DNA of 39,671 bases from an uncultured archaeon (GCA_964371455.1 CAYJMB010000002.1:1-39671); one strand, 5' to 3'; shown: positions 2,269-36,299, counted from the stretch's first letter. The notes: generated by a model not told the origin, from the sequence alone. Numbers and translations: made by a program.

Positions 2269-4389
2269 CTAGAAAAGTTTTAATCCTGACATGATATTTT
2301 TCAGCAGCGACAGGATATGGAAATTTATCATGTAACTGCTGACAGCCCGTGCTGATGGGAGGTTTGTTAACATTCCAGTAGTTTGTACCGGCGAGTCTTT
2401 TTTGGTTTGTGATGCTGTTTTATTCTCTACTTGCGAGATGACAAGAGATGCGTTTTCTGTTGTCAGATCTATTGCATCTGCCAATACAGTTGCATTTAAT
2501 AATGACCTGCTGATTATAATTTCCACCGTCTTGTCGTATGTTTTGTTTGATTTGGCCCTTATTCTCAGATAATAGACACCTTCACTGATATCTTCTTTTA
2601 TTTTATTTTGCAGGATTAGCGTCATATTTTTTGATGCATTGAGGCTTACTGCTACAGGGTTTGGCACCCATCCACCTTCGCTGGCCAGGGAAGAGCCCCT
2701 GAACACGTAGGAATAAACAGAAATGTTTTTCCTTACATCAAAAAGATTCTTTACCATGGCTGTTGTTTTTAGCTCATCGCCTGTGACTGCTGTTTCATTG
2801 TAAGAAAGGACATCGATACCGATGGTATTTTCAGTCTGCCGGAAAGGAAGGCCACTCGTTGAAGATGAAGAACTGCTTGAAGTGCTCCCTGAGGCAGAAG
2901 ATTGCGGCGGGCAATTTGTTCCTTCGATGGTGAGGGAAGACGACACAGTTATGTCCAAACCTGAGACGAAGAGTGCATGCGAGCCGCTCTTGATAGAGCT
3001 GTCGCAGTTCTGCTTTATCTGGACAGGAACTTTTAGCCTGTACATTTTGTATTTATCATTGACGTGTACAGTGCTGACGCTACTGGATTTTTTGCCATCT
3101 TTTTCTGTCCACAAGTCTACTGCATATTTGGCTGTGTTGCCTTTGTAGATCTCTAATTCCACAAGAACAACATCTCCGAATTTTGTGATGTTGTCATGAC
3201 TGATTATTAATATTGATGATCCGTTGCTCTGGGCTGCGCCTTTTACTGCTAATGATGCTGCGGCTTCTATCTCTGTCATGTTATTACAGGTTGCGTTGAC
3301 AACTTTTGAACGGATTATGTATGCCTGGCTACCGTTCAGATCAGGAGGCGTCCAGTCGCGAGATACGGACTTATAGCATTTCATCTCTTGAGTGGTGTTG
3401 GTCTTTTCCTTTGCTGCAGCGCCAAAGAGATCCTCGATCCAGTACTCGATAGTCACGTTATGATCCTTGTTCTCGCATTTTGTGTCGTTCAGTTCGATAA
3501 AATACCGGAATGACTCCGATGCGTTGGCAAAAATTGGCGTCAGAATACGCACAGAAATAAAGCACTGCACTAGCGAGGAAAGGACAGATATCTGGGAGCA
3601 GCTGGACTGGTTTTCGTATGCGGTTGTCAAGTTCCAGCAGAGCGTCAGATTGCCTGTCGCCAGAGGATAAAAAGAAGCCAAAGTGACTGAGCAGGAGATA
3701 TTCTGGGCAAAGTTTTCTGATTTGCTGTACGTTGCATTTGTCAGATTGTACTGAAGTGTCATGTCTACACTTTCACAGGAATCAGCACTTAGATTAAATA
3801 GAGAATAATTTATATTTTCCATGAACGTTGTTGAAAAATTAACCGCAAATTTTGGCAGCTTTTTGTTTTGCGAGCCTGGCGTGGGTGTACACTCTTGCAA
3901 GGTTGAATTGGACTCGGGATAAGCGCAAAGGGTTTTGTTATTGTTGGCGCCGCCAAGGGATGAATTATAGTAAAGAGATGCTGAGTGTGTGGTGTTGGAC
4001 AGATACAATGTTTCATTATTGTTTGAGAGACCACCGCAGAGCGTGCTTGCGTTTGTGTGAAGAGCGAGGCCAGATACATTGTAGTGATTATAGGCAAGCG
4101 TGCCTGACCCACCGTCTGTGATCACAGCAAAGCCGGCAGGCGGGAGGTCAAATGTCGTGTTGCTGTAGGTTTTGTTGTCAGTCTGGTTTACAAGGCCTTT
4201 CAATAAGGAGACATTGCAGAGAGTCCAGTTTTCCAGAGAGATTGTGTCGTTTGTCGGGTTATAGATTTCTATCCATTCGTCATAGCTCTCGTTCACGGGA
4301 GGGTCGTACATCACTTCTGTGATAAGCAAAGACGCATAAGCAGGAGTGATTAAGAACAGCAACAACAAGGCCGGAAACCATGGCTGCAT
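2269..4389 (-). CDS. Secreted cell-surface protein with N-terminal lamin-tail domain (LTD), Ser-rich linker and Ig-like repeats; predicted heavily N-glycosylated
   Basis: The likely true start is M61 of the ORF (ATG at 4389-4387), giving signal peptide MQPWFPALLLLFLITPAYA. An LTD signature follows (LLITEVMYDPPVNESYDEWIEIYNPT...ISLENWTL). I count 40 N-X-S/T sequons in 706 aa, plus a poly-Ser linker SSASGSTSSSSSSSTSG. Confidence 0.75.
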   Translation of the reverse strand: MQPWFPALLLLFLITPAYASLLITEVMYDPPVNESYDEWIEIYNPTNDTISLENWTLCNVSLLKGLVNQTDNKTYSNTTFDLPPAGFAVITDGGSGTLAYNHYNVSGLALHTNASTLCGGLSNNNETLYLSNTTHSASLYYNSSLGGANNNKTLCAYPESNSTLQECTPTPGSQNKKLPKFAVNFSTTFMENINYSLFNLSADSCESVDMTLQYNLTNATYSKSENFAQNISCSVTLASFYPLATGNLTLCWNLTTAYENQSSCSQISVLSSLVQCFISVRILTPIFANASESFRYFIELNDTKCENKDHNVTIEYWIEDLFGAAAKEKTNTTQEMKCYKSVSRDWTPPDLNGSQAYIIRSKVVNATCNNMTEIEAAASLAVKGAAQSNGSSILIISHDNITKFGDVVLVELEIYKGNTAKYAVDLWTEKDGKKSSSVSTVHVNDKYKMYRLKVPVQIKQNCDSSIKSGSHALFVSGLDITVSSSLTIEGTNCPPQSSASGSTSSSSSSSTSGLPFRQTENTIGIDVLSYNETAVTGDELKTTAMVKNLFDVRKNISVYSYVFRGSSLASEGGWVPNPVAVSLNASKNMTLILQNKIKEDISEGVYYLRIRAKSNKTYDKTVEIIISRSLLNATVLADAIDLTTENASLVISQVENKTASQTKKDSPVQTTGMLTNLPSARAVSSYMINFHILSLLKNIMSGLKLF

Positions 4390-4496
4390 ACTGTAACCTA
4401 CAACATTAATGCATAAAAATTGCAGGCAAATCGCACAATCTAGTTGAGAACATGACGGAAAATGTCTTTGTTGCGCATGGCTTGGAACACAGTCTT

Positions 4497-4723
4497 CGCC
4501 AAGGTTAACTATATATACTGGATTCAGACAATTAGAATAAAGAGTGAGACGCAATGAAAGGAATAACACCAGTTATAGCGATAATTTTGCTTCTGCTAAT
4601 AACAATCGCGATGGTCGGCTTCGCATTTGTCTGGTTCTCCAGGGTGGCAACCACATCAGGGACAAACATAGAGAGCCAGCTGAACACTACATTTGGGGCA
4701 AGCGGGAAAAAAGTCGGCATTGA
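4497..4723 (+). repeat. Direct repeat copy 1 (227 bp): pilin promoter, 5' UTR and first 56.7 codons
   Basis: Base-by-base comparison with 5490..5716 (offset 993) shows 226/227 identity. The single mismatch is 4514 t versus 5507 a. Confidence 0.95.
4509..4517 (+). promoter_or_regulatory. Candidate TATA box of pilin gene 1 (ctatatata)
   Basis: AT-rich TATA-like element 37 nt upstream of ATG 4554. A purine-rich GAGTGAG lies 6-12 nt upstream of the ATG as a possible SD. Confidence 0.4.
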
Positions 4724-7521: not shown

Positions 7522-8454
7522 ATGCAAATCGGGCCGGAAGATCAAGAACTCTATACAGATTTTTTCCGGCAAGAGCCCGTCAGCGAACTTTACGCAAACA
7601 ACTGGGCCTACATCATCCAGGCATGCCGGGGAAGTGGCGGACTTGGGCACAAATACTTCGACGGCACGACGCTTGTCAGCATAGGCAAGCATGATGGACA
7701 CTATGTGCTGGTCAGGCCGCTTGGGGCAAATCCGGTAGCTGCTGTGCAAATGCTGGCAAAAAGACTGCATAAAATTTCAAAGAAACCTGTTTATGCAAAG
7801 CACGTCTTGCCGGAGCAGGCAGCTGATTTCAAATGCATCGGCTTCAGCGACATGCGCCAATACCCATGGTCAGCTGCTTCCCCATTGGATGACGACACAT
7901 TCCCGCAAGTGGTTGTTGCTCTTGACAACATTTTTCGCGTCGAGCAGAAGGAAAGCAGAGAATTAAGGCTGAGATTGAACAGGTTTTTGAATTATGCTGC
8001 TGAAAACCTTACATTACAGGAAGCGTGCTTTTTGTTTGCGCCTGAGCTGTATAATCCGGAAAAACACCTCTATCAAAAGACGCATGCAGTGAGAGTTTTA
8101 GAGAAATGGGCCAGCAAAAACAAAGAGCTTATGGATGCGTACACTAACATGATAGAGTACCCGCCTTCAGAAGGGTTTTGCTATATCATGAGAATTGGCA
8201 TCAAGGCTAGGGGCTTCTATGTTTTTGGCAAGATAGGAGAGAGGACTGTTGGGTGCCATGCAACTATCGCTGATTACAGACAGATGCCGGGACTTTCTGA
8301 AGCAGCGCTGATGAAATGTTTTGGCTCTTTACACAACAAAGGGATAAGACGAGTAAACTTGGGAGGCTCTGAGACAGAAGCCCTGTACAAGTTCAAGCTG
8401 AAATTCCGCCCGCACGAATTAAAGGAAGCAACGCACATGGTCTATTTGCCTTAG
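7522..8454 (+). CDS. Hypothetical protein, possibly DUF2156/GNAT-fold (MprF C-terminal-like)
   Basis: Clean 310-aa ORF. The family call rests only on size and loose resemblance. Its stop codon overlaps the porA stop (convergent genes). Confidence 0.3.
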   Translation: MQIGPEDQELYTDFFRQEPVSELYANNWAYIIQACRGSGGLGHKYFDGTTLVSIGKHDGHYVLVRPLGANPVAAVQMLAKRLHKISKKPVYAKHVLPEQAADFKCIGFSDMRQYPWSAASPLDDDTFPQVVVALDNIFRVEQKESRELRLRLNRFLNYAAENLTLQEACFLFAPELYNPEKHLYQKTHAVRVLEKWASKNKELMDAYTNMIEYPPSEGFCYIMRIGIKARGFYVFGKIGERTVGCHATIADYRQMPGLSEAALMKCFGSLHNKGIRRVNLGGSETEALYKFKLKFRPHELKEATHMVYLP

Positions 8455-9488
8455 ATCCAGTAAACCTCTTCCTTCTCGGCTTTCTCCAGTTTCGCAAAGA
8501 TGTCTGAGAAATCCTTCTCTGACAGATATTTCTCCAAAGAGATGAAGCTCAGGGAAAATTTTGCCATGGGTTTAATCTCCTGATACAAGGGGGAAAATGC
8601 ACCCGAGCTGGATGCAAAATCCAGGACAGCAACTTTCTTTTCTTTCAGGATTGCCAAGGCGTTCAGAGGGAAAGGACGATAAACCCTGATTCTCACCAAC
8701 CCGACTTTCTTGCCCTGCATGCGCAGGTTGTTCACTGCGGCTCTGGCTGTGCTGCTATGGTAGCCATATGTAACAAGGAGGAGCTCGGCATCGTCTGCCT
8801 GGTATTTTTCAACTGCTGGCCAGGATCTTTTGAATTTCTTCTTCCAGTTTTCATCTATTAAAGCGGCTATTTTGAGCACACTTTCCATGGCTTTTTGCTG
8901 CTGCTGCCGGGAGTGCGCATCATAATGTCCCAGGTGTGAAGGATTTTTCATATCCAACTTATGGGGAATTTTTACTTTTGGGAGGAAATTCTTTATTATC
9001 TGGCCTGATGGCAGTGACAAAGGCTCTGAGTAGTTCATGGGACCGTCCCATGCGATAACACAGGGGAGGAGGACTTTGCTGTCCACACAAAGTCTGAAAG
9101 ACATGATGATTGTATCCAACAACTCCTGATGAGATTCACAGAAGACAATAATACAGCCTGCATCGCGCAGAGACATCACGCTCTCCGGATGGGCTGCTGC
9201 AAAAATTATGACAGGCATCCTGACTAACGCTGCTTCCTTTACTGCTGCCGGGTCCGGATGCGCGATGGGCACAAAGGCACGCTTTTCAACAGACGACGCA
9301 GCAACAGCCGCGGTTATGGCAGATGCGGCAGAGTCTGATTCCAGCACATCTGCCTGCATAAGAGGCTTAATATGTTCCACTACAGGAAATGAACTATCCT
9401 GTGCATAAGAAACAAGATTTACCATGGACAGCTGTACAGCATGAGCCACGACTTCTGGCGTAGACAACAATTCATTTTTAATTATCAT
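8451..9488 (-). CDS. porA: 2-oxoacid:ferredoxin oxidoreductase alpha subunit-like, N-terminal motifs divergent
   Basis: The likely start is MIIKNELLS (ATG 9488-9486), which overlaps the porD stop (TAATG). The C-terminal domain is well conserved (LLLVTYGYHSSTARAAVNNLRMQGKKVGLVRIRVYRPFPLNAL...VAVLD). In the N-terminal domain GNEAVA, YPITP and ESEHSA read as TPEVVA, YAQDS and ESDSAA. Confidence 0.75.
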   Translation of the reverse strand: MIIKNELLSTPEVVAHAVQLSMVNLVSYAQDSSFPVVEHIKPLMQADVLESDSAASAITAAVAASSVEKRAFVPIAHPDPAAVKEAALVRMPVIIFAAAHPESVMSLRDAGCIIVFCESHQELLDTIIMSFRLCVDSKVLLPCVIAWDGPMNYSEPLSLPSGQIIKNFLPKVKIPHKLDMKNPSHLGHYDAHSRQQQQKAMESVLKIAALIDENWKKKFKRSWPAVEKYQADDAELLLVTYGYHSSTARAAVNNLRMQGKKVGLVRIRVYRPFPLNALAILKEKKVAVLDFASSSGAFSPLYQEIKPMAKFSLSFISLEKYLSEKDFSDIFAKLEKAEKEEVYWI

Positions 9489-17610: not shown

Positions 17611-17733
17611 TGCTCCCACCGGGATTCGAACCCGGGTACCCGCAGCTCACAGAATACCTGCAAGCTTCCACGGCTCTCTTTTTCCTGATGAAACGAAAGG
17701 CCGCTATCCTTGACCGGACTAGACTATGGGAGC
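17611..17733 (-). tRNA. tRNA-Glu(TTC), interrupted: an 18-nt canonical intron plus an unresolved 29-30 nt insertion
   Basis: The reverse strand reads GCTCCCA TA GTCT AGTCCGGTCAA GGAT A GCGGC CTTTCG [18 nt] A GCCGT ...34 nt... CCGGG TTCGAAT CCCGG TGGGAGC A. The anticodon is at 17697-17695. Confidence 0.8.
17676..17693 (-). other. tRNA-Glu intron at 37/38 with a textbook bulge-helix-bulge motif
   Basis: The anticodon stem is GCGGC/GCCGT. The central 4-bp helix is CTTT/AAAG, flanked by 3-nt bulges CG|T and AG|A on opposite strands. The distal helix is TTC/GAA with loop ATCAG. Confidence 0.8.
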
Positions 17734-24652: not shown

Positions 24653-25435
24653 ATGCCAGAAATTCTTACTCCGATGGACAGAATGCAGCAGCAGGTTGAT
24701 AACGTTAGTGAAAACCTTCAGCGCATCCGCTATAAAGTAGCTGTGCTCAGCGGCAAAGGCGGCGTGGGCAAGACAACAATTGCTGTGAACATCGCTGCGC
24801 TGCTTGCTGCCCGCGGCTACAAAGTAGGATTGCTTGATGCAGATATTGACTGTCCGAATGTGGGGAAGATACTGGGGATTGCTGAAACCTTTGAGATTCA
24901 GGACAACAAAAAACTTGCGCCTATAGAGAAATTTGGGATAAAAATTGCCAGCATGTCGTTCTTCGGACAGCCAGAAGATGCGCCGCATATTTTCAGGGGG
25001 CCTATAATACATAGTTCCATTCTCCAGCTCCTGAGCATGACAGAGTGGGGGCTGCTGGATTTCCTCATAACAGACATGCCGCCTGGAACATCAGATGCCA
25101 CACTTACCCTGATGCAGTTTGTGCCGCTGGATGGCATTATCATAGTGACAACACCACAGGAATTGTCATTGACAGATGCAATAAAATCCGCCAATGTTGC
25201 AAGGCAATTCGGGAAAAGATTCGGGATTGCGGAAAACATGGCGGGAGATGTTTTCGGGAAGGGTGATGACAAGATAGCAAAAAAACTGGGAGCGCCGTTT
25301 CTTGGATCGGTTCCTCTCTCAAAGGACATCAGAGAGAGCTGCGATGAGCACACGCCTATCGTGCTGACAAATGAAAAGATCAGGAAAGAGTTTGAGAGAA
25401 TTGTGGAGAATTTGAGAAAGAGGGTTTTGGAATAA
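24653..25435 (+). CDS. Mrp/NBP35/ApbC-family Fe-S cluster carrier ATPase
   Basis: Deviant Walker A VLSGKGGVGKTT; LLDADI; ITDMPPGTSD. Confidence 0.85.
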   Translation: MPEILTPMDRMQQQVDNVSENLQRIRYKVAVLSGKGGVGKTTIAVNIAALLAARGYKVGLLDADIDCPNVGKILGIAETFEIQDNKKLAPIEKFGIKIASMSFFGQPEDAPHIFRGPIIHSSILQLLSMTEWGLLDFLITDMPPGTSDATLTLMQFVPLDGIIIVTTPQELSLTDAIKSANVARQFGKRFGIAENMAGDVFGKGDDKIAKKLGAPFLGSVPLSKDIRESCDEHTPIVLTNEKIRKEFERIVENLRKRVLE

Positions 25436-27122: not shown

Positions 27123-27365
27123 ATGATAAAAATGTCTAGACGAAAAAGTGCAGAAACTGTTGTTTCAGAAGTGCTTCAAGAAGGAACAAATTACCCAGAA
27201 CTAGGAATATACAGAGGCGCTATTTCACTAGAATGTTATGCTGTCGGTAAAAAAGAGCCATCTACATCAGAAACCCGCTATACATTTGATGACGGCAAAG
27301 GTTATCCAATGCTAACAGCTGAGGAAGTCTGCAAGAAACTGCATTTGCGGGTATCAGCGAAATGA
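27123..27365 (+). CDS. Hypothetical protein
   Basis: ORF-track frame 27105..27365 (TTG start); first ATG at 27123. No motif identified. Confidence 0.35.
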   Translation: MIKMSRRKSAETVVSEVLQEGTNYPELGIYRGAISLECYAVGKKEPSTSETRYTFDDGKGYPMLTAEEVCKKLHLRVSAK

Positions 27366-27959
27366 TTTCCCGCAGCCGCAGCTTGCTTTCTCGTTGGGAT
27401 TGGAGATCTTGAAGCCTGCGCCTTGCAGGGATTCTACATAATCAACAGTCACGTTCTGGAGCATATTTGCGCTTTCCTGGTCGATGAAAACACGGACGCC
27501 GTGCTGGTCGATAACAACGTCGTCGTCACCCCTGATCTTCTCAAAATCCATGTTGTACATATAACCTGAGCAGCCTCCGCGAACGACGCCTATGCGCAGG
27601 CCATAACCTTTCTTGCCCTGCTGCTCTGCAAGATAGCGGACCTTGTCTGCGGCCAGCTGTGTGAGTTCGATAGAGAAATCAGCATGTTCAGAGCCAGCTT
27701 CTGCGTGCTCGTTTTCGGCTAGCGCAGGCTGAGAAGACTTTTTTGCAATGTAATCATTAATTTCCTGCACCATCATGTCAATCTCCCCGTCAGGAATGCC
27801 ATGTCCCCTTGCTCCCATCTCCACGCTCTCAAATGTATTGACAGAGCAGCCGAAGCAGTGCAGGCCGTGAGACATCATGATCTCTGCTGTGTCCGGGTAC
27901 TTCTCGATGACTTCGCCGACGGTCATGTCCTTGGTTACGAATATGATTTGCTGGTCCAT
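27354..27959 (-). CDS. Fusion protein: DUF1858-like redox-disulfide domain plus HesB/IscA-type Fe-S scaffold
   Basis: N-terminal domain: ITKDMTVGEVIEKYPDTAEIMMSHGLHCFGCSV...ESVEMGARGHGI. An acidic linker follows. C-terminal IscA domain: GLRIGVVRGGCSGYMY...SCGCGKSF. Confidence 0.8.
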   Translation of the reverse strand: MDQQIIFVTKDMTVGEVIEKYPDTAEIMMSHGLHCFGCSVNTFESVEMGARGHGIPDGEIDMMVQEINDYIAKKSSQPALAENEHAEAGSEHADFSIELTQLAADKVRYLAEQQGKKGYGLRIGVVRGGCSGYMYNMDFEKIRGDDDVVIDQHGVRVFIDQESANMLQNVTVDYVESLQGAGFKISNPNEKASCGCGKSFR

Positions 27960-28139
27960 AAGGATCACTATATTTAACTTCAATAGATGGATTTAAATTG
28001 GTTTTTCTCTTCTTGCTGCCGGCTCTTATGCGCATGCTTTGTTAACGCAACGAATTTGGGCGTAATCTCAGGTTATCGAGTTGTTGGCATAGTGCGTCCA
28101 AGGCTCTCTCTTCTCTGGTGAGACAACCTTCAGAGTGCA

Positions 28140-28394
28140 CTAAACAATCTTCTCGCCTGTTTCTTTGTTTATGATGTGTATGACAACTGCCGGGCAGCCT
28201 TCTGCTGCCTGCTTGTTGATTTCCAAGTCTTTTTCGTCTATCTCCCTTTCAAACTGGCCTTCTGCTACTTCTTTGCCGTCCACAAGATCAGCTTTGCCAT
28301 CCTGGTTCATGACCCAATGATCTGGCGCTACGGCTGCGCAGACACCGGCGCCGATGCAGCCGTTTCTGTCGTATTGGATAATATATTTTCCCAT
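28140..28394 (-). CDS. Small mono-cluster ferredoxin
   Basis: YDRNGCIGAGVCAAVAPDHW...AAEGCPAVVIHI, the pattern of single-cluster Fer4_15-like ferredoxins. Confidence 0.8.
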   Translation of the reverse strand: MGKYIIQYDRNGCIGAGVCAAVAPDHWVMNQDGKADLVDGKEVAEGQFEREIDEKDLEINKQAAEGCPAVVIHIINKETGEKIV

Positions 28395-28473: not shown

Positions 28474-31400
28474 TTAATGACCTGAACATCCGCAGCCTCC
28501 ACCACCACAGCCGCACGTTCCATGATCAGAAGCTTTATCTTGAATAACTGTGAGAGATGTCTCTTTTCTTTTTGCGAGCTCCTGGGCTGCTGCCTGCTTG
28601 ATATCGTCAACGCTGCAGCAGTCTCCAGCAAGAGCACCGCCGCTTGCCGGGTGGCTCATTGTAGGTTTCTTTGGGAAGTGAGAAACTCCAGACTTGCCTG
28701 CACCTGCGGGCATAGGGAATGTGATGGCAGGTTCTTCGGCATTTGCAACTTCTTCGTCTCCCCAGTCTGCTTCAAAGTACTGGCGCGTCTTGAACTTGCG
28801 GTGCTTGTCAAAATTCGCTTTGATCGCGAGCATCTCCTCTTTTGTAAGCCTGCGGTGGTACTTGTCCTTTGAGAGCTGCTTGCCTGTTTTCTTCTCCCAC
28901 TCTGAGAACGGAATGGAGAATTTTCTCTGTATGCGGTCTCTATACAATTCAGGGATAACGTTGAATGTGCAGAACGGAATAACGCGGCCGTCAGGAGTTG
29001 CGTAGTGAATATCACACTTGTGTATGCGGTCTATATCCCAGTTGAACGGGTCCTGGAAGTGCATCATACCGATGAATAAAGAATTCTTGTGGAAGTCTGC
29101 GAGACCGTGATAGTTGCCGCCCTGCATGGCTCCTGTGAGCATGCGGACGAACTTCAGATTCTTTGGCTTGTGCTCTTCGTCAACATACTTGCGGATGTTC
29201 CACATAAGCTTTGCCAATACCCAGGATTTTCGCATCTTCTTGTATTTGGCATTGTTGATCTCTCGCGTCAGTTCACCGAGATAGTCAAAGAAGCCATCAA
29301 TGTCAAAGAAGCGCGTAATAGGGACGAGCTTCATGTTATCGCCATCACCGTCTTTGAAAACATACGTTGCCATGCCGCAGGCGAAGTGGATAGAAAGACG
29401 ATACTTAGGCTCATCTTTCAGGGCTTCCACGAAATCTGTGACCTGCTTTGCGCATGGCACAGGGAAGAAATCCTCGCGCCCGACCTGGCCGTCTGTCTGC
29501 TCTTCAATACGCTTGATTGCTCCAGGGATTGTAATCCTCTGTCTCTTTCTTAGCTGGTCTGGCATTCTGCCGACAAGAGAGACAGGCTGGAAATTGACAG
29601 AGCGCACTGTGTCAATATTGCCCGCGCCAAACCGGATGATGTCACCGAGCTCGTGGTCATTTACACCGCCTATGACTGTCGGCACAAGCACAACGCCAAG
29701 GCCGGCTTGCCTGCAGGACTCAATGGCTGACTGGGCTTCCCAATAGTTTTTTGGATTTGTTTCAGGCGCCATACCATCAAAGCTCATGTAGAGATTGTTC
29801 ACACCTGCTTCACGGATTTTTTTTGCAAGTTCAGGGTCTTTGGCAAGATTTACTCCATTCGTATTGAGCTGGACGTGGTCGTATCCAATTTCTTTGGCAG
29901 CTCTGATAATATCAGGAAGATCTTCACGCAAAGTTGGCTCGCCGCCTGTGATCTGCACTGCATTGGCACCGACAGGCTTGATATTTCTCATCCTGCGCAG
30001 CATGAATTTTATCTGGTCCATGCTGGGCTCATAAATAGGCTCGCCTTCTTTTGCATAAAAGAAGCAGTTGCTTACAAGGATCCCGTCACCTGCCAAAAAC
30101 ACATGTTCCATATTCTCTACTTCAATATCGTACACATATTCTTCTGTTTGTCTTGCCAGAATTTCCTTTACTTCATCTACAACAAAGTCTCCAATCCTTT
30201 CGATCCTTGCCCCTCTTCGTGGCGTAAGCCCGAGAAGCCTGGCTTTGTGGCCTTGCCGAAGGTCCAAAGCAGCAGCGAGTTTTTCCATGTCTTTGCCCGA
30301 TACATAAATCTTGTGCAAGTCATAGTTTGCGCCTTTTATCTTTTCTTTGGGAACTGTATAGATGCGGCAGAATACACCCAGCGAAGACAGCAAATACATG
30401 ACATCTCTTGCCAATCCTCTGGAAACAGTTGCCAGTCCCATGCTGGCATGCCTTTTCCCGCGCGTAACAAAACCATCTCCATTAAACAGGCCGCTTAACA
30501 GTGCTGTCTTTAATGCGTAAGGCATGCCAAAAAACATCTTTGGAACCCTTTTTCCTGAAGCTTTCTCAGGAATGCCTAATACATACTTGAAGACAAGTCT
30601 CATATTCCTGGAACCAATTACGATCTGCGGTGCCTTGCCATACTTTTCAAGATTAAGAGTACTGTACTGAAGACCCAGCCTCTTTATGCAGTCTATAATT
30701 TCGACTGCATGCATTTTGTCCTTGCATGTTATGCGCAGGTCTTTGTATGTGTAGTGCCCGTTGGCAATAAAGTAGCCTATAATTTTTGCCAAGTCCTTGC
30801 TTGTTTTCAGCCTTCTAGGAAGTTTTTCCTTGGTTGCATCCCTTCCAAAAGTAACTTCATGATTTGTGTCCGGCAGTTTGTAAAATTCAGAAAGCGGCAT
30901 AGTATCCCGTGATCGCCAGCTATAGAAAAGCCCGCCTGAAGTACCTGTCAGGGCAGCTCTCACATTGTGGACATATATTTTTTGTTTTTCCACGTCAGGA
31001 ATAGCTGAAAATGCTTCAAGAAGGTCTATCTCAATCTCGTGTGCAGCGGGCAGAGCCGCGCCTGCCAACAGTTTATCGCCGATTTTTAATTCGCTGGCCG
31101 GCTTCTTTAAAAGGTCCTTGCCGTCTAACATCGCAAGCATGTGTTCTGGCGTGACTTTGATGCGCCTTCCCGTCTTTGTTCTGACCTCCAATAAAGAGCC
31201 TTTGTACGGCCTTGTGAAAACTTTTTTTATTTTTGCCCATGTCGCAATACCTGAGCTGAATGTCAGGGTTTCTGTGCCATCCAAATATGCGAATTCGCCT
31301 TCGATATCGTTAATTTTGATTTTTGTGGGCTGACTGCCCGGTATATTTAACAATGTCTCTATTTTCTCAAGAGACACTACCCCATTTCTTCTGACTATCA

Positions 31401-31914
31401 ATTCCTCTTCCCCCGGGAGACAATACCAACAAGTCAAGTCGCAGCGGTTTGTAATTACGATGTTGCCCAGTCCTGTATGGGACTCATGTTCAACACAAAG
31501 GCCGCAATCAGTGGGGCAATCAATATCAAACTTGCTCTTGTCTATGTGCGGATTGAGAATCTTGATTCCAGGGTCCTGGAAGCGCTCTGCTTTCTTAAAC
31601 ATCTCGTAGTCAGACCAGTAGAGCTCCTTGGTCACGCCGTGCTCTACGCAACTCTTGATGACCCATACTTTGTTGTTGCGGGCATATGTGACTGCGTCGA
31701 TCTTAATCCTGTCCCATTTTTCCTCGTCCACGCATCCCGGGCACAGGCTCTGGTGAAATTTCAGGACAAGAGTATCTGCGGGTAAAAGAGAAAGAAGAGC
31801 CTGTTTTCTTTCATGAGTGAAATTCTTAACATAGGGCGATGTCGGGACAATTTCGATATTCTGTGTAACTTCTTTCGGGTCGTGTGTAATAGCTTGCGGG
31901 TATGCATTTACCAT
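28474..31914 (-). CDS. Radical SAM enzyme of the MJ0619/Tes (tetraether lipid synthase)-like family, interrupted by an intein
   Basis: N-terminal zinc-ribbon pattern SLCPGC...SCVEHG. Second Cys site CPTDCGLCVEHESHTG. Radical SAM motif NRCDLTCWY-C, split by the intein. GGEPTL SAM-binding block downstream. SD GGAGGT lies 7 nt before ATG 31914; the alternative upstream ATG is 31953. Confidence 0.8.
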   Translation of the reverse strand: MVNAYPQAITHDPKEVTQNIEIVPTSPYVKNFTHERKQALLSLLPADTLVLKFHQSLCPGCVDEEKWDRIKIDAVTYARNNKVWVIKSCVEHGVTKELYWSDYEMFKKAERFQDPGIKILNPHIDKSKFDIDCPTDCGLCVEHESHTGLGNIVITNRCDLTCWYCLPGEEELIVRRNGVVSLEKIETLLNIPGSQPTKIKINDIEGEFAYLDGTETLTFSSGIATWAKIKKVFTRPYKGSLLEVRTKTGRRIKVTPEHMLAMLDGKDLLKKPASELKIGDKLLAGAALPAAHEIEIDLLEAFSAIPDVEKQKIYVHNVRAALTGTSGGLFYSWRSRDTMPLSEFYKLPDTNHEVTFGRDATKEKLPRRLKTSKDLAKIIGYFIANGHYTYKDLRITCKDKMHAVEIIDCIKRLGLQYSTLNLEKYGKAPQIVIGSRNMRLVFKYVLGIPEKASGKRVPKMFFGMPYALKTALLSGLFNGDGFVTRGKRHASMGLATVSRGLARDVMYLLSSLGVFCRIYTVPKEKIKGANYDLHKIYVSGKDMEKLAAALDLRQGHKARLLGLTPRRGARIERIGDFVVDEVKEILARQTEEYVYDIEVENMEHVFLAGDGILVSNCFFYAKEGEPIYEPSMDQIKFMLRRMRNIKPVGANAVQITGGEPTLREDLPDIIRAAKEIGYDHVQLNTNGVNLAKDPELAKKIREAGVNNLYMSFDGMAPETNPKNYWEAQSAIESCRQAGLGVVLVPTVIGGVNDHELGDIIRFGAGNIDTVRSVNFQPVSLVGRMPDQLRKRQRITIPGAIKRIEEQTDGQVGREDFFPVPCAKQVTDFVEALKDEPKYRLSIHFACGMATYVFKDGDGDNMKLVPITRFFDIDGFFDYLGELTREINNAKYKKMRKSWVLAKLMWNIRKYVDEEHKPKNLKFVRMLTGAMQGGNYHGLADFHKNSLFIGMMHFQDPFNWDIDRIHKCDIHYATPDGRVIPFCTFNVIPELYRDRIQRKFSIPFSEWEKKTGKQLSKDKYHRRLTKEEMLAIKANFDKHRKFKTRQYFEADWGDEEVANAEEPAITFPMPAGAGKSGVSHFPKKPTMSHPASGGALAGDCCSVDDIKQAAAQELAKRKETSLTVIQDKASDHGTCGCGGGGCGCSGH
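30067..31422 (-). mobile_element. Intein (452 aa) with LAGLIDADG homing-endonuclease domain
   Basis: It starts with Cys (CLPGEEELIV) and has block B VTPEHML, LAGLIDADG motifs IIGYFIANGHY and LLSGLFNGDGFV, and block G GDGILVSN, followed by +1 Cys (CFFYAKEG). Excision restores CDLTCWYC. Confidence 0.85.
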
Positions 31915-32252
31915 CTGGATACCTCCTGTTCTGCAATACGCCTTCGGCGCCATACTTGTTTGCGATTAAATCCATGACTCTGCCATATAAACTTTTAGCG
32001 ATTTCTAAAAGTTATAAATGTATTAGCGTGAATGATATTTAAAGGTTGATGTGTCGGTGGGGAGACATATCATTCATGATTTTGTTGAAGTTTTTCAATG
32101 TCTTTACGTAATTCAAGCAAATAAGGAGTCACTACAGCTGCTGCTGAGATTGGTCTTCCCACAAAACGCCTCCAGAACTCAGTCCAATGTTCAGTAGCAT
32201 ATTCGAATAGTACCATTATAATCCTTTTAACCCTTTCCTCTAATTAATCTGC

Positions 32253-32711
32253 ATGCCAGACGGAGATGTGAACAAAAAGATATTTGCGACGTTTGCCAGC
32301 GTGGCATCGGCGCTGGGATTCAGCGAGGTGCACGGCATGATCATAGGCGCGATTCTTGTTGCGAACAGGCCGCTCTCGCTGCAGGAAATTGCCAAGAGGA
32401 CAGGGTACTCCTTGTCATCGATTTCTATATCCATTGACCTACTTGAGTTAGTCGGGATTGTGCGAAAAATCAAAAACCTCGGTGACCGCAAAATTTATGT
32501 CAAGCTTGAGGGGGATCTTATTGAGAGCCTGAAGAAGGCATTCATGCTGAAAATACAGAAAGAGATGTTCCTCACCAAGATGGAGCTGGAAAAATACAAG
32601 GCAGGCACCAAAGATACAAACATGAAAAGAACCATAGAAGTTTTGCAGCACGAAGTTAACAGGCTACAGAATTATATCAACAGAATGGCTGAGGTTGAGA
32701 TACCGAAGTGA
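32253..32711 (+). CDS. MarR/GbsR-like winged-helix transcriptional regulator
   Basis: wHTH LSLQEIAKRTGYSLSSISISIDLLELVGIVRKI followed by a coiled-coil tail. Confidence 0.65.
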   Translation: MPDGDVNKKIFATFASVASALGFSEVHGMIIGAILVANRPLSLQEIAKRTGYSLSSISISIDLLELVGIVRKIKNLGDRKIYVKLEGDLIESLKKAFMLKIQKEMFLTKMELEKYKAGTKDTNMKRTIEVLQHEVNRLQNYINRMAEVEIPK

Positions 32712-34634: not shown

Positions 34635-36299
34635 ATGACCCAGACAGAAAAAATAAACTGGATGGAATGGGGAAAAGATGCGTTTGAGAGGGCGAAAAAA
34701 GAGAATAGGCCGATATTGTTAGATATATCTGCTGTCTGGTGTCATTGGTGCCACGAGCTCGATAAAAATGCTTATTCTGATCCTGTGGTTATCAAAACAA
34801 TAAATGAAAACTTTGTGCCGATACGCGTTGATACAGACAAAAGACCTGACATCAATGAACGATACAACCAGGGAGGCTGGCCGACTACCGCCTTTCTCAC
34901 GCCAGAGGGCGGGCTCATCGCAGGCGCGACTTATGTCCCGGTGGAGCAGATGAAAGCCCTGCTGCCGCAGGTGAAGTATTTTTACAACACGCAGAAACAG
35001 AATATCAGCAGCACTATACAGAAGCCACAATACAAAGAAGGCGTTGTTTCCGAACAGATAGCACAGGATGTAGCATTATACCTGAAAGATAATTTTGATG
35101 CTGTGCATGGCGGCTTCTACTATGAGCCGAAGTTTCCCATGCCTGAAGCGATTGAGATCGCAATACTTTTGTACATAAAAACACACGACAAAGAGCTGCT
35201 GAACATCGTCAAGACAACTCTTGACAGGATGACAGGCATTTACGACACAGTTGAAAACGGCTTCTTCCGCTATTCTGTGCGACAGGACTGGTCGCTTCCG
35301 CACTATGAGAAAATGCTGGAGGTTAATGCAGGGCTTTTGCAGAATTATGTGCATGCATTTTCATTGACAGGCAAAGAGGATTACAGGAAAATCGCAGAAG
35401 GAATAATAAAATACATCAGGCCAAAGCTTTTTGGCATTGCATTCTATGGCAGCCAGGACGCCGATGAGGAATACTATGCCTTGCCGCTGGCAGAGAGGAA
35501 GCAGGCAAAAGAACCTTTCATAGACAAGACGATATACACGAACTGGAACGGCAAATGCATTGCTGCATTTGTAGATGCGTACGCTGTTCTCGGCGATGCC
35601 ACGCTTTTGACTGATGCACAAAAGGTCCTCAATTTTCTCATTGACAGCTGCTATAATGAAAAGCAGGGCATGTGTCACTATCATGATGGCAAGAAAAATG
35701 TTTTCGGGTTGCTGACTGATAATGTCTGGATGATGGCGGCATTACTGAAAATGTACCAAGCAACAGCAGAGAGAACGTATCTGGAAACTGCGGAGAAGAT
35801 TGCTGATTACATAATAAAAAATCTCAAGGACAAGAAAGGATTTTTTGACAGGATTAAGGAAAAAGAAGGACTCGGACTTCTTAAGGAAAGGAACAAGTCC
35901 ATACTGGAGAACTCGATTGCTGCTATGGTTTTCACCGAACTCACAAAACTGACAGGAAAGGAGGAATACATCAAGGTAGCAGAAGGATGCTTATCAATAT
36001 TCTCACAAGATTACAAAGCTTATGGAATCCATGCTGCCCTTTACGCACTCGCTGTTGAGAAATTCCTGGACAACATTCATGTTGTAGTTGTCGGAGATGC
36101 GAAAGACGAAGAAGAAACAAGAAAGCTGGCTGCTATTTCCGATCCGAGAATAATTGTGCAATTTCTGGATGAGAAGCAAGATGAAAAAGATGTCAAGAAA
36201 TTAGGCTATGGAAGAGGAGTTTTCGTGTGCCATGGAAGCACGTGCAATAAGTTCAACACAATAGAAGAAGCGATGAGGAAACTAAGCGGCTTTGAGTGA
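34635..36299 (+). CDS. Thioredoxin-domain DUF255 protein (YyaL/SPATA20-like)
   Basis: INWMEWGKDAFERAKKENRPILLDISAVWCHWCHELD...FVPIRVDTDKRPDINERY, followed by a long alpha-helical domain. Confidence 0.85.
   Translation: MTQTEKINWMEWGKDAFERAKKENRPILLDISAVWCHWCHELDKNAYSDPVVIKTINENFVPIRVDTDKRPDINERYNQGGWPTTAFLTPEGGLIAGATYVPVEQMKALLPQVKYFYNTQKQNISSTIQKPQYKEGVVSEQIAQDVALYLKDNFDAVHGGFYYEPKFPMPEAIEIAILLYIKTHDKELLNIVKTTLDRMTGIYDTVENGFFRYSVRQDWSLPHYEKMLEVNAGLLQNYVHAFSLTGKEDYRKIAEGIIKYIRPKLFGIAFYGSQDADEEYYALPLAERKQAKEPFIDKTIYTNWNGKCIAAFVDAYAVLGDATLLTDAQKVLNFLIDSCYNEKQGMCHYHDGKKNVFGLLTDNVWMMAALLKMYQATAERTYLETAEKIADYIIKNLKDKKGFFDRIKEKEGLGLLKERNKSILENSIAAMVFTELTKLTGKEEYIKVAEGCLSIFSQDYKAYGIHAALYALAVEKFLDNIHVVVVGDAKDEEETRKLAAISDPRIIVQFLDEKQDEKDVKKLGYGRGVFVCHGSTCNKFNTIEEAMRKLSGFE

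Follow-up and report, generated by a model that had tools for sequence, protein, structure and literature searches.

What separates the second from the third cysteine of the cluster-binding motif in a radical S-adenosylmethionine (SAM) protein by 452 amino acids (aa), and what becomes of this segment? The question is raised by a gene on a DNA stretch of 39,671 nucleotides (nt) from an uncultured archaeon (GCA_964371455.1, CAYJMB010000002.1:1-39671), which was analyzed as a whole and is called here the window. The gene is very probably the tetraether lipid synthase gene (tes) of an uncultured DPANN (Aenigmarchaeota-like) archaeon, carrying a mobile intein at the position designated site a, which would splice by the class-1 pathway and probably no longer homes. 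An intein at the third cysteine of the CX3CX2C motif had been proposed in the original prediction, made from the sequence alone. After retranslation of the open reading frame (ORF), all motifs of that prediction were found at the residues given, and the coordinates of the intein and the exteins were checked by retranslating each sub-interval (Table 1). The insertion point lies between CDLTCWY and CFFYAKEG, and the ligated junction peptide of the protein with the intein excised contains DLTCWYCFFYAK.

We scanned aa 178 to 629 of the ORF with Hint and LAGLIDADG hidden Markov models (HMMs), and both gave matches above their cutoffs, as the intein proposal had implied. Indeed, the excised segment scored 64.2 bits with Pfam Intein_splicing (PF14890; cutoff, 35.8) and 64.1 bits with LAGLIDADG_3 (PF14528; cutoff, 22.5). 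Its ends were recognized by TIGR01445, covering the N-terminal region of inteins (41.5 bits; cutoff, 24.5), and by TIGR01443, covering the C-terminal region (19.3 bits; cutoff, 15.6). Among solved structures, the closest relatives are LAGLIDADG inteins of archaea, namely, PI-PkoII (2CW7; 6e-18) and the VMA inteins 7QSS and 7QSU. Similarly, the intein part of an AlphaFold2 (AF2) model superposed on the TliVMA intein 7QSU with a template modeling (TM) score of 0.83 and also matched the fold of 2CW7. The junction nucleophiles Cys178, Asn629, and Cys630 (ORF numbering) are all present in each of 37 site-a inteins. Furthermore, with the block nomenclature of PMC4031507, the splicing residues Cys1, T91 and H94 (block B), D432 and H440 (block F), S451, and N452 (intein numbering) were invariant in our alignment A1.

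A second alignment of 68 sequences (A2) gave the complementary result. The intein columns held no residue in any of the 18 intein-free homologues, which run ungapped through NRC(D/N)L(T/S/N)CWY^CFFY(A/S/L)(K/R)E (here and below, carets mark the insertion or splice junctions). Instead of an alignable segment, which the original prediction had named as the sign of a family domain, all 18 thus aligned across the junction without a gap, and excision restores CDLTCWYC, the motif that is contiguous in the intein-free homologues. By sequence and comparison, we assign the insert to the class-1-type inteins with a nested double-motif LAGLIDADG endonuclease.

Two departures from the usual pattern had been noted from the sequence, a serine as the penultimate residue of the intein and an asparagine in the first LAGLIDADG motif, and both residues are indeed present. 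The serine turned out not to be an unusual sign. The ending is Ser-Asn in 36 of the 37 site-a inteins and Gly-Asn in the remaining one, and the Pyrococcus abyssi intein likewise ends in Ser-Asn. Because this ending is kept in nearly the whole set, the serine is not evidence of decay, and comparison identifies it as a conserved trait of the family. This is in agreement with the splicing of inteins lacking the penultimate histidine, which is documented in references cited in PMC4031507.

The identity of the host enzyme was examined with the spliced extein. It scored 692.8 bits with the model NF045702, "tetraether lipid synthase Tes" (cutoff, 450), over profile positions 3 to 485 of 486, and 103 bits with Pfam Radical_SAM. 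Searched against the 7TOL sequence of the glycerol dialkyl glycerol tetraether (GDGT) enzyme GDGT-MAS (MJ0619), it gave an E value of 1.1e-128, with CDLTCWYC aligned to the radical-SAM motif CNLNCPIC. In the AF2 model of the whole precursor (mean predicted local distance difference test [pLDDT] score, 81.5), the two extein halves together superposed on 7TOM with a target-normalized TM score of 0.90 (E = 8.9e-38), and confidence fell below 50 exactly at both splice junctions (residues 161 to 164 and 618 to 624). These searches uphold the proposed affiliation to the Tes/MJ0619 family.

The metal ligands lead to the same assignment. In GDGT-MAS they follow the patterns C9X2C12X20C33X2H36 (rubredoxin-like) and C73/C77/C80 plus a histidine (PMC9433317). 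All four Tes metal sites were found in the window protein, namely, CPGC..CVEH, CPTDCGLCVEH, CDLTCWY^C, and the C-terminal cluster residues, of which C846, C967, C982, and M950/M951, assigned as ligands by alignment only, vary little or not at all in A2. Compared with GDGT-MAS MJ0619 of Methanocaldococcus jannaschii (7TOL/7TOM, PMC9433317), the domain order and the metal-ligand motifs are the same, but MJ0619 has no intein. By homology, the host is a radical SAM enzyme of the Tes/GDGT-MAS family and a predicted tetraether lipid synthase. The intein sits immediately before the third cysteine of CX3CX2C, and the +1 nucleophile is, as had been anticipated and as homology indicates, also the third ligand of the SAM-binding [4Fe-4S] cluster. 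In the two papers reporting the discovery of Tes, that of Lloyd et al. 2022 on the GDGT-MAS structure (PMC9433317) and that of Zeng et al. 2022, with MA_1486 as the comparison Tes (PMC8941075), the word "intein" does not occur.

Beyond the region covered by the Tes profile, the protein has a lineage-specific C-terminal extension of about 145 aa (28474-28910, minus strand) with a Cys/Gly-rich tail, GDCCS...HGTCGCGGGGCGCSGH. Tails of the Cys/Gly type also occur in the homologues P0002, P0006, P0007, and P0009. In the AF2 model, the pLDDT stays below 50 over most of the extension, the tail included. The extension may bind metal.

This intein allele has been described before under another name. 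The P. abyssi protein CAB49617 (WP_010867823, Q9V0T6) is annotated "Molybdenum cofactor biosynthesis MoaA" in UniRef and "tetraether lipid synthase Tes, intein-containing" at NCBI. Its junctions read NRCNLNCWY^CFPPTEE...DGILVSN^CFFYAREG, and over the full length, its intein and that of the window share 45% identity (E = 4e-131). We identify the published P. abyssi (Pab) "MoaA" intein (InBase, "Pab Moaa") with that of Q9V0T6 because the two agree in name, in organism, and in the geometry of Cys-3 and Cys1. The window intein and Pab MoaA share the insertion point (C-x3-C-W-Y^C1...S-N^C+1-F-F-Y-A), the Hint domain with a double LAGLIDADG motif (452 aa in the window and 455 aa in Pab), the CxxC pair of Cys-3 and Cys1 (C(-3)-W-Y-C1 in the window and C-W-Y-C1 in Pab), and the host enzyme family. 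Unlike the Pab protein, the window extein has additional N- and C-terminal extensions, motif 1 carries Asn where Pab has Asp, and the host belongs to a mesophile-associated DPANN lineage, whereas that of Pab is a hyperthermophilic euryarchaeon for whose protein the literature still uses the name MoaA.

Database models already describe the site as well. NF045703, "tetraether lipid synthase Tes, intein-containing," is an NCBIfam exception model with an intein at model positions 156 to 610, at the same site of the host, and proteins of this name are known from Thermococcus, Pyrococcus, and Archaeoglobus. Compared with this curated set of the Thermococcales/Archaeoglobus type, the window protein is a divergent relative that falls outside it. 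The novelty implied by the original prediction was thus overstated: comparison identifies the window intein as the known "Tes site-a" allele, which has long been recorded under the name of the P. abyssi "MoaA" intein. The re-identification of the Pab host as Tes is apparently present in database names but not in the accessible literature, and in the literature searched (intein together with tetraether, Tes, or radical SAM) we found no paper linking the intein to tetraether synthesis.

How the intein would be removed follows from these residues. The 1146-aa precursor would be translated whole, and its Hint domain would carry out canonical class-1 splicing. Cys1 would attack the carbonyl of Tyr(-1) in an N-S acyl shift, helped by the Thr and His of block B. 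Cys+1 would then take over the N-extein by transthioesterification, the terminal Asn would cyclize so that the intein leaves, and an S-N shift would form the peptide bond. The Hint fold keeps Cys1 and Cys+1 adjacent. The predicted product is an enzyme of 694 aa whose CDLTCWYC motif is intact; in this motif, the former +1 nucleophile would serve as the third cysteine and ligate the SAM-binding [4Fe-4S] cluster. It is plausible that, as had been predicted, no cluster can be assembled until splicing has occurred. The precursor itself still formally reads CDLTCWYC, with Cys1 of the intein at the position of the third cysteine.

The geometry of this site also bears on when splicing would take place. 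In the Pab MoaA intein, a native disulfide between Cys-3 of the N-extein and Cys1 of the intein blocks splicing until it is reduced (PMC3922620; PMC10663303). The Cys-3 of this published redox trap is the second cysteine of CX3CX2C. The primary source of the trap is, as the reviews report it, Callahan et al. 2011, Nat Struct Mol Biol 18:630. By analogy, a disulfide in the CxxC pair of the window protein would probably block splicing under oxidizing conditions and its reduction would release it, and such a disulfide, as in Pab, or premature binding of a metal at Cys1 could make splicing conditional. According to PMC3922620 and PMC8891592, other inteins in Fe-S or redox-sensitive hosts are those of Mycobacterium tuberculosis SufB and Pab PolII (Cys1-Cys+1 disulfide), in which the catalytic cysteines likewise double as redox- or metal-sensitive residues and splicing can be conditional. 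Their hosts and sites differ from ours, and in the window the +1 cysteine is, by homology, itself a ligand of the catalytic radical-SAM cluster.

We then considered the endonuclease. Its first motif lacks the catalytic acid, and the second retains it. In the motif 1 column, Asp is found in 36 of the 37 site-a inteins and Asn only in the window copy, where the codon is AAC instead of the GAT of the closest relative, L044. In LAGLIDADG enzymes, Asp-to-Asn at this position abolishes cleavage, as in I-CreI D20N and in the PI-SceI D218/D326 mutants. The substitution removes one ligand of a catalytic metal, and double-strand cleavage should be lost. Because one of the two catalytic motifs is affected in this way, the window endonuclease has, by analogy, probably lost double-strand cleavage and hence homing. 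The suggestion that the endonuclease may be decaying was therefore correct in that the Asp-to-Asn change is real, but not in the sense of a general decay: the domain is full length, its motif 2 is intact, and its ratio of nonsynonymous to synonymous substitutions (dN/dS; compared with four relatives) is about 0.05 to 0.08, below the approximately 0.10 of the Hint domain, these values being rough and of qualitative use. The endonuclease domain thus appears to be otherwise under purifying selection, and the substitution suggests that one catalytic center was knocked out recently, without general erosion.

Other states of the endonuclease were seen at site a. P0149 has a mini-intein without an endonuclease, and P0064 has Asn in motif 2; by their sequences, these two would represent later stages of endonuclease loss in other lineages. 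In P0182, the insert is only 24 to 27% identical to the other site-a inteins despite an extein that is 89% identical, and it may represent another lineage of inteins, inserted at this site or close to it.

To place the element among its relatives, we scanned genomes with the intein profile and obtained 42 loci. The scan missed P. abyssi, whose member was recovered by a protein search and a cluster look-up, and the distribution given here is therefore a lower bound. The scan loci L038 to L042 were rejected as site-a relatives; these weak matches stem from inteins hosted by class III and class II ribonucleotide reductases. The closest named homologues of the window protein come from "Candidatus Aenigmarchaeota" metagenome-assembled genomes (MAGs), and one of the three closest intein-bearing loci (L001 to L003) is from a groundwater MAG. 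The other hosts found were Thermococcales, Archaeoglobaceae, Desulfurococcales, Caldarchaeum, Brockarchaeota, and other Thermoproteota, mostly thermophilic lineages. Judged by these homologues, the window host is an uncultured, Aenigmarchaeota-like DPANN archaeon and would be a new host lineage for the Tes intein. The intein-free ortholog is carried on contigs of up to 730 kb, and Tes is therefore native to these genomes and not a contamination from a host, a concern raised in PMC8941075.

The comparison with the closest loci shows how patchy the intein is. The protein P0006 (locus L043) is intein-free and has an extein 94% identical to that of the window, in the gene order MarR, divergent from tes, ferredoxin, and DUF1858/Fe-S_biosyn. 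Its DNA runs across the insertion site as TGCTGGTAC directly followed by TGTTTTTTTTACGCTAAAGAAGG. P0002 (locus L044) bears the intein, and there the ferredoxin gene also lies directly downstream of tes. The syntenic loci L043 and L044, without and with the intein, therefore represent a presence/absence polymorphism at one orthologous locus. Additionally, most Thermococcus Tes proteins lack the intein, the similarity of the inteins is only loosely correlated with that of the exteins (r = 0.53), and there are cross-phylum pairs in which the inteins are more similar than their hosts, for example, 65% versus 48%. Patchy among near-identical hosts, the element appears to be primarily selfish and to behave as a mobile parasite.

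Two further insertions came up among the homologues. Tes has a second intein site, GANAVQ(L/F)^S...HN^TGGEPT, which immediately precedes the SAM-binding motif GGEP (P0007, P0021, P0047, P0103, and P0149). Some proteins harbor both inteins (P0007, 1666 aa; P0103, 1527 aa), and others harbor the second only. P0083 (993 aa) is another radical SAM protein, with a B12-binding domain and a related LAGLIDADG intein at CPFRCFF^C...HN^CNWP, which again lies at the third cysteine of CX3CX2C. This cysteine may be a recurrent target of inteins across radical SAM families.

Several points weigh against a splicing, non-homing site-a intein in a Tes of the known kind. The penultimate histidine (G:6), which normally helps the cyclization of Asn, is absent and replaced by Ser. 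The Asn codon AAC of motif 1 recurs in a second assembly, L045 (Logan ERR4904390), which is identical to the window over 4199 nt but possibly derives from the same reads, so that Asn could be a population variant or a shared error. The synonymous divergence behind the dN/dS values is saturated (dS > 1.2). The redox-trap behavior is drawn from two reviews and carried over at 45% identity. Finally, the full window protein scored 1164 bits with NF045703, below the cutoff of 1700 bits. The 4199-nt contig of L045 spans tes and the ferredoxin gene with 100% identity to the window, which makes this public sequencing run a likely pointer to the sample from which the window came.

Among the alternatives, the one that fares best holds that the intein is a domesticated posttranslational switch, which gates GDGT synthesis on redox state or the availability of Fe-S and is kept as protection for an oxygen-labile enzyme; we consider it unlikely. 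The Cys-3/Cys1 CxxC pair is conserved at every site-a intein, but it belongs to the host's own motif and would thus exist whether or not trapping were selected for. That the Pab homologue is under redox control has been published (PMC3922620; PMC10663303), and the genes next to tes are Fe-S related. Nevertheless, relatives with a 94% identical extein and most Thermococcus Tes proteins do without the intein, which means that it is indispensable to no lineage. Purifying selection acts on the Hint domain, and the window copy combines a likely dead endonuclease with an intact splicing domain; in the intein family as a whole, however, such selection also acts on the endonuclease, which fits ongoing homing, and the loose correlation between inteins and exteins, with some inteins more similar than their hosts, fits horizontal spread. 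A more specific form of this idea, which we regard as quite unlikely, makes the "MoaA" intein a switch on tetraether lipid synthesis: in the precursor, Cys-7, Cys-3, and Cys1 still spell CX3CX2C, Cys1 could be held in a disulfide (under oxidizing conditions) or in premature Fe-S ligation, redox state and the supply of Fe-S would control splicing and, through it, the formation of a membrane monolayer, and the loss of homing with splicing kept in the DPANN copy would represent an early step toward domestication.

It is very unlikely that the intein is splicing-dead, owing to the penultimate Ser or other changes, which would make the gene in effect a tes pseudogene in an organism that makes no tetraethers of its own. 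Such a reading takes up the absence of the penultimate His, but Ser-Asn is the norm of the family, including cultured, GDGT-producing Thermococcales and the studied P. abyssi intein. It can also point to the inactivating-type substitution in the endonuclease; the catalytic residues of splicing, on the other hand, are all invariant. DPANN archaea are often assumed to take their lipids from hosts (PMC8941075), but the extein of the window has a dN/dS of about 0.02 relative to L044, again a rough value, and its frame of 3441 nt is intact, whereas a dead gene would gather changes. Lastly, although splicing is here predicted from the sequence, a lineage-specific 452-aa domain kept in the mature enzyme is effectively refuted by intein-specific HMM matches at both ends of the segment, by nucleophiles exactly at both junctions, by 18 homologues lacking the segment to the residue, and by the splitting of a metal-binding motif that must be contiguous.

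With the mobile, probably non-homing intein in tes retained as the preferred interpretation, the layout of the gene and its surroundings can be described (Table 1). The true start is probably the ATG at 31914 (M14 of the ORF). The sequence AGGAGGT lies 6 nt upstream of it, a TTTATA-like box is found further upstream of AGGAGGT, and the close homologues all start with MVNAYPQA. A scan with bacterial consensus sequences for promoters and terminators, which are unsuited to an archaeon, gave fewer promoter-like matches in the window than in shuffled sequences.

Table 1. Positions of the tes gene, its intein, and neighboring genes in the window (residues in ORF numbering; SD, Shine-Dalgarno)
Feature	Position	Strand	Details
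Mechanical ORF	28474..31953	-	1159 aa
tes (tetraether lipid synthase, radical SAM), including intein	28474..31914	-	1146 aa from M14; SD-like AGGAGGT; homologue starts
N-extein	31423..31914	-	164 aa; CPGC...CVEH (rubredoxin-like), CPTDCGLCVEH (N-terminal auxiliary cluster), first two radical-SAM Cys
CDLTCWY	31423..31443	-	aa 171-177
Intein (Hint splicing domain with nested LAGLIDADG homing endonuclease)	30067..31422	-	452 aa; aa 178-629
CLPGEE, intein N terminus			from aa 178
Block B TPEH, within VTPEHML	31141..31152	-	VTPEHML, aa 267-273; Thr and His predicted to assist N-S acyl shift
LAGLIDADG motif 1, IIGYFIANG	30757..30783	-	aa 391-399; Asn codon AAC at 30760..30762 in place of catalytic Asp
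LAGLIDADG motif 2, LLSGLFNGDG	30472..30501	-	aa 485-494; catalytic Asp kept
Intein C-terminal Ser-Asn (block G)	30067..30072	-	Asn cyclization would free the intein
VSN^CFFYA			aa 627-634; downstream splice junction
C-extein	28474..30066	-	530 aa plus stop; GGEPT SAM-binding motif, C-terminal cluster domain, Cys/Gly-rich tail
Cys+1	30064..30066	-	Predicted splice nucleophile; third Cys of CX3CX2C
Single-[4Fe-4S] ferredoxin	28140..28394	-	84 aa; Pfam Fer4_15; directly downstream of tes
DUF1858 + Fe-S_biosyn (A-type Fe-S carrier) protein	27354..27983	-	Pfam; order kept in L043
MarR-family regulator	32253..32711	+	Divergent, upstream of tes; conserved in L043
Mrp/NUBPL-type Fe-S ATPase	24653-25435	+	Near tes

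The ferredoxin gene also neighbors tes in L043, L044, and L045, and its product is a candidate electron donor to Tes. The DUF1858/Fe-S_biosyn protein may in turn deliver clusters. Because the order of tes, ferredoxin, and DUF1858/IscA is kept in L043, where the downstream genes lie at positions 8237-9319, and a DUF1858-Tes fusion occurs in the homologue P0076, the arrangement suggests a small module supplying electrons and clusters to Tes.

Elsewhere in the window, the full Rfam tRNA model matched 123 nt at 17611-17733 on the minus strand with 43.4 bits (gathering score, 29); this match probably contains an intron, and ARAGORN predicted no tRNA in any part of the window. A 766-aa protein encoded at 2269-4569 (minus strand) has a lamin-tail domain as its sole Pfam match. 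Positions 34635-36299 (plus strand) encode a 554-aa thioredoxin-like DUF255 protein (DsbH-type) whose C-terminal part resembles six-hairpin glycosidases; this protein is adjacent also in L044.

For annotation, these data mean that the locus should be recorded as one tes gene with an intein, and not as a fused or "MoaA-like" protein, and that phylogenies of Tes and surveys of GDGT proxies should use the spliced sequence only. The understanding of how inteins or Tes work is unchanged by the window case. What the window adds to the known allele is a host from the DPANN archaea and a copy whose endonuclease is probably inactivated, and the same intein allele is thus spread across Thermococcales, Archaeoglobi, several lineages of Thermoproteota, and DPANN. 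The 2023 review PMC10663303 explains the Pab trap by stating that "oxygen is toxic to MoaA." Since the host is Tes, this account needs to be reconsidered with membrane lipid synthesis in mind: among natural "redox-trap" inteins, the best known lies in a tetraether lipid synthase and not in molybdenum cofactor synthesis.

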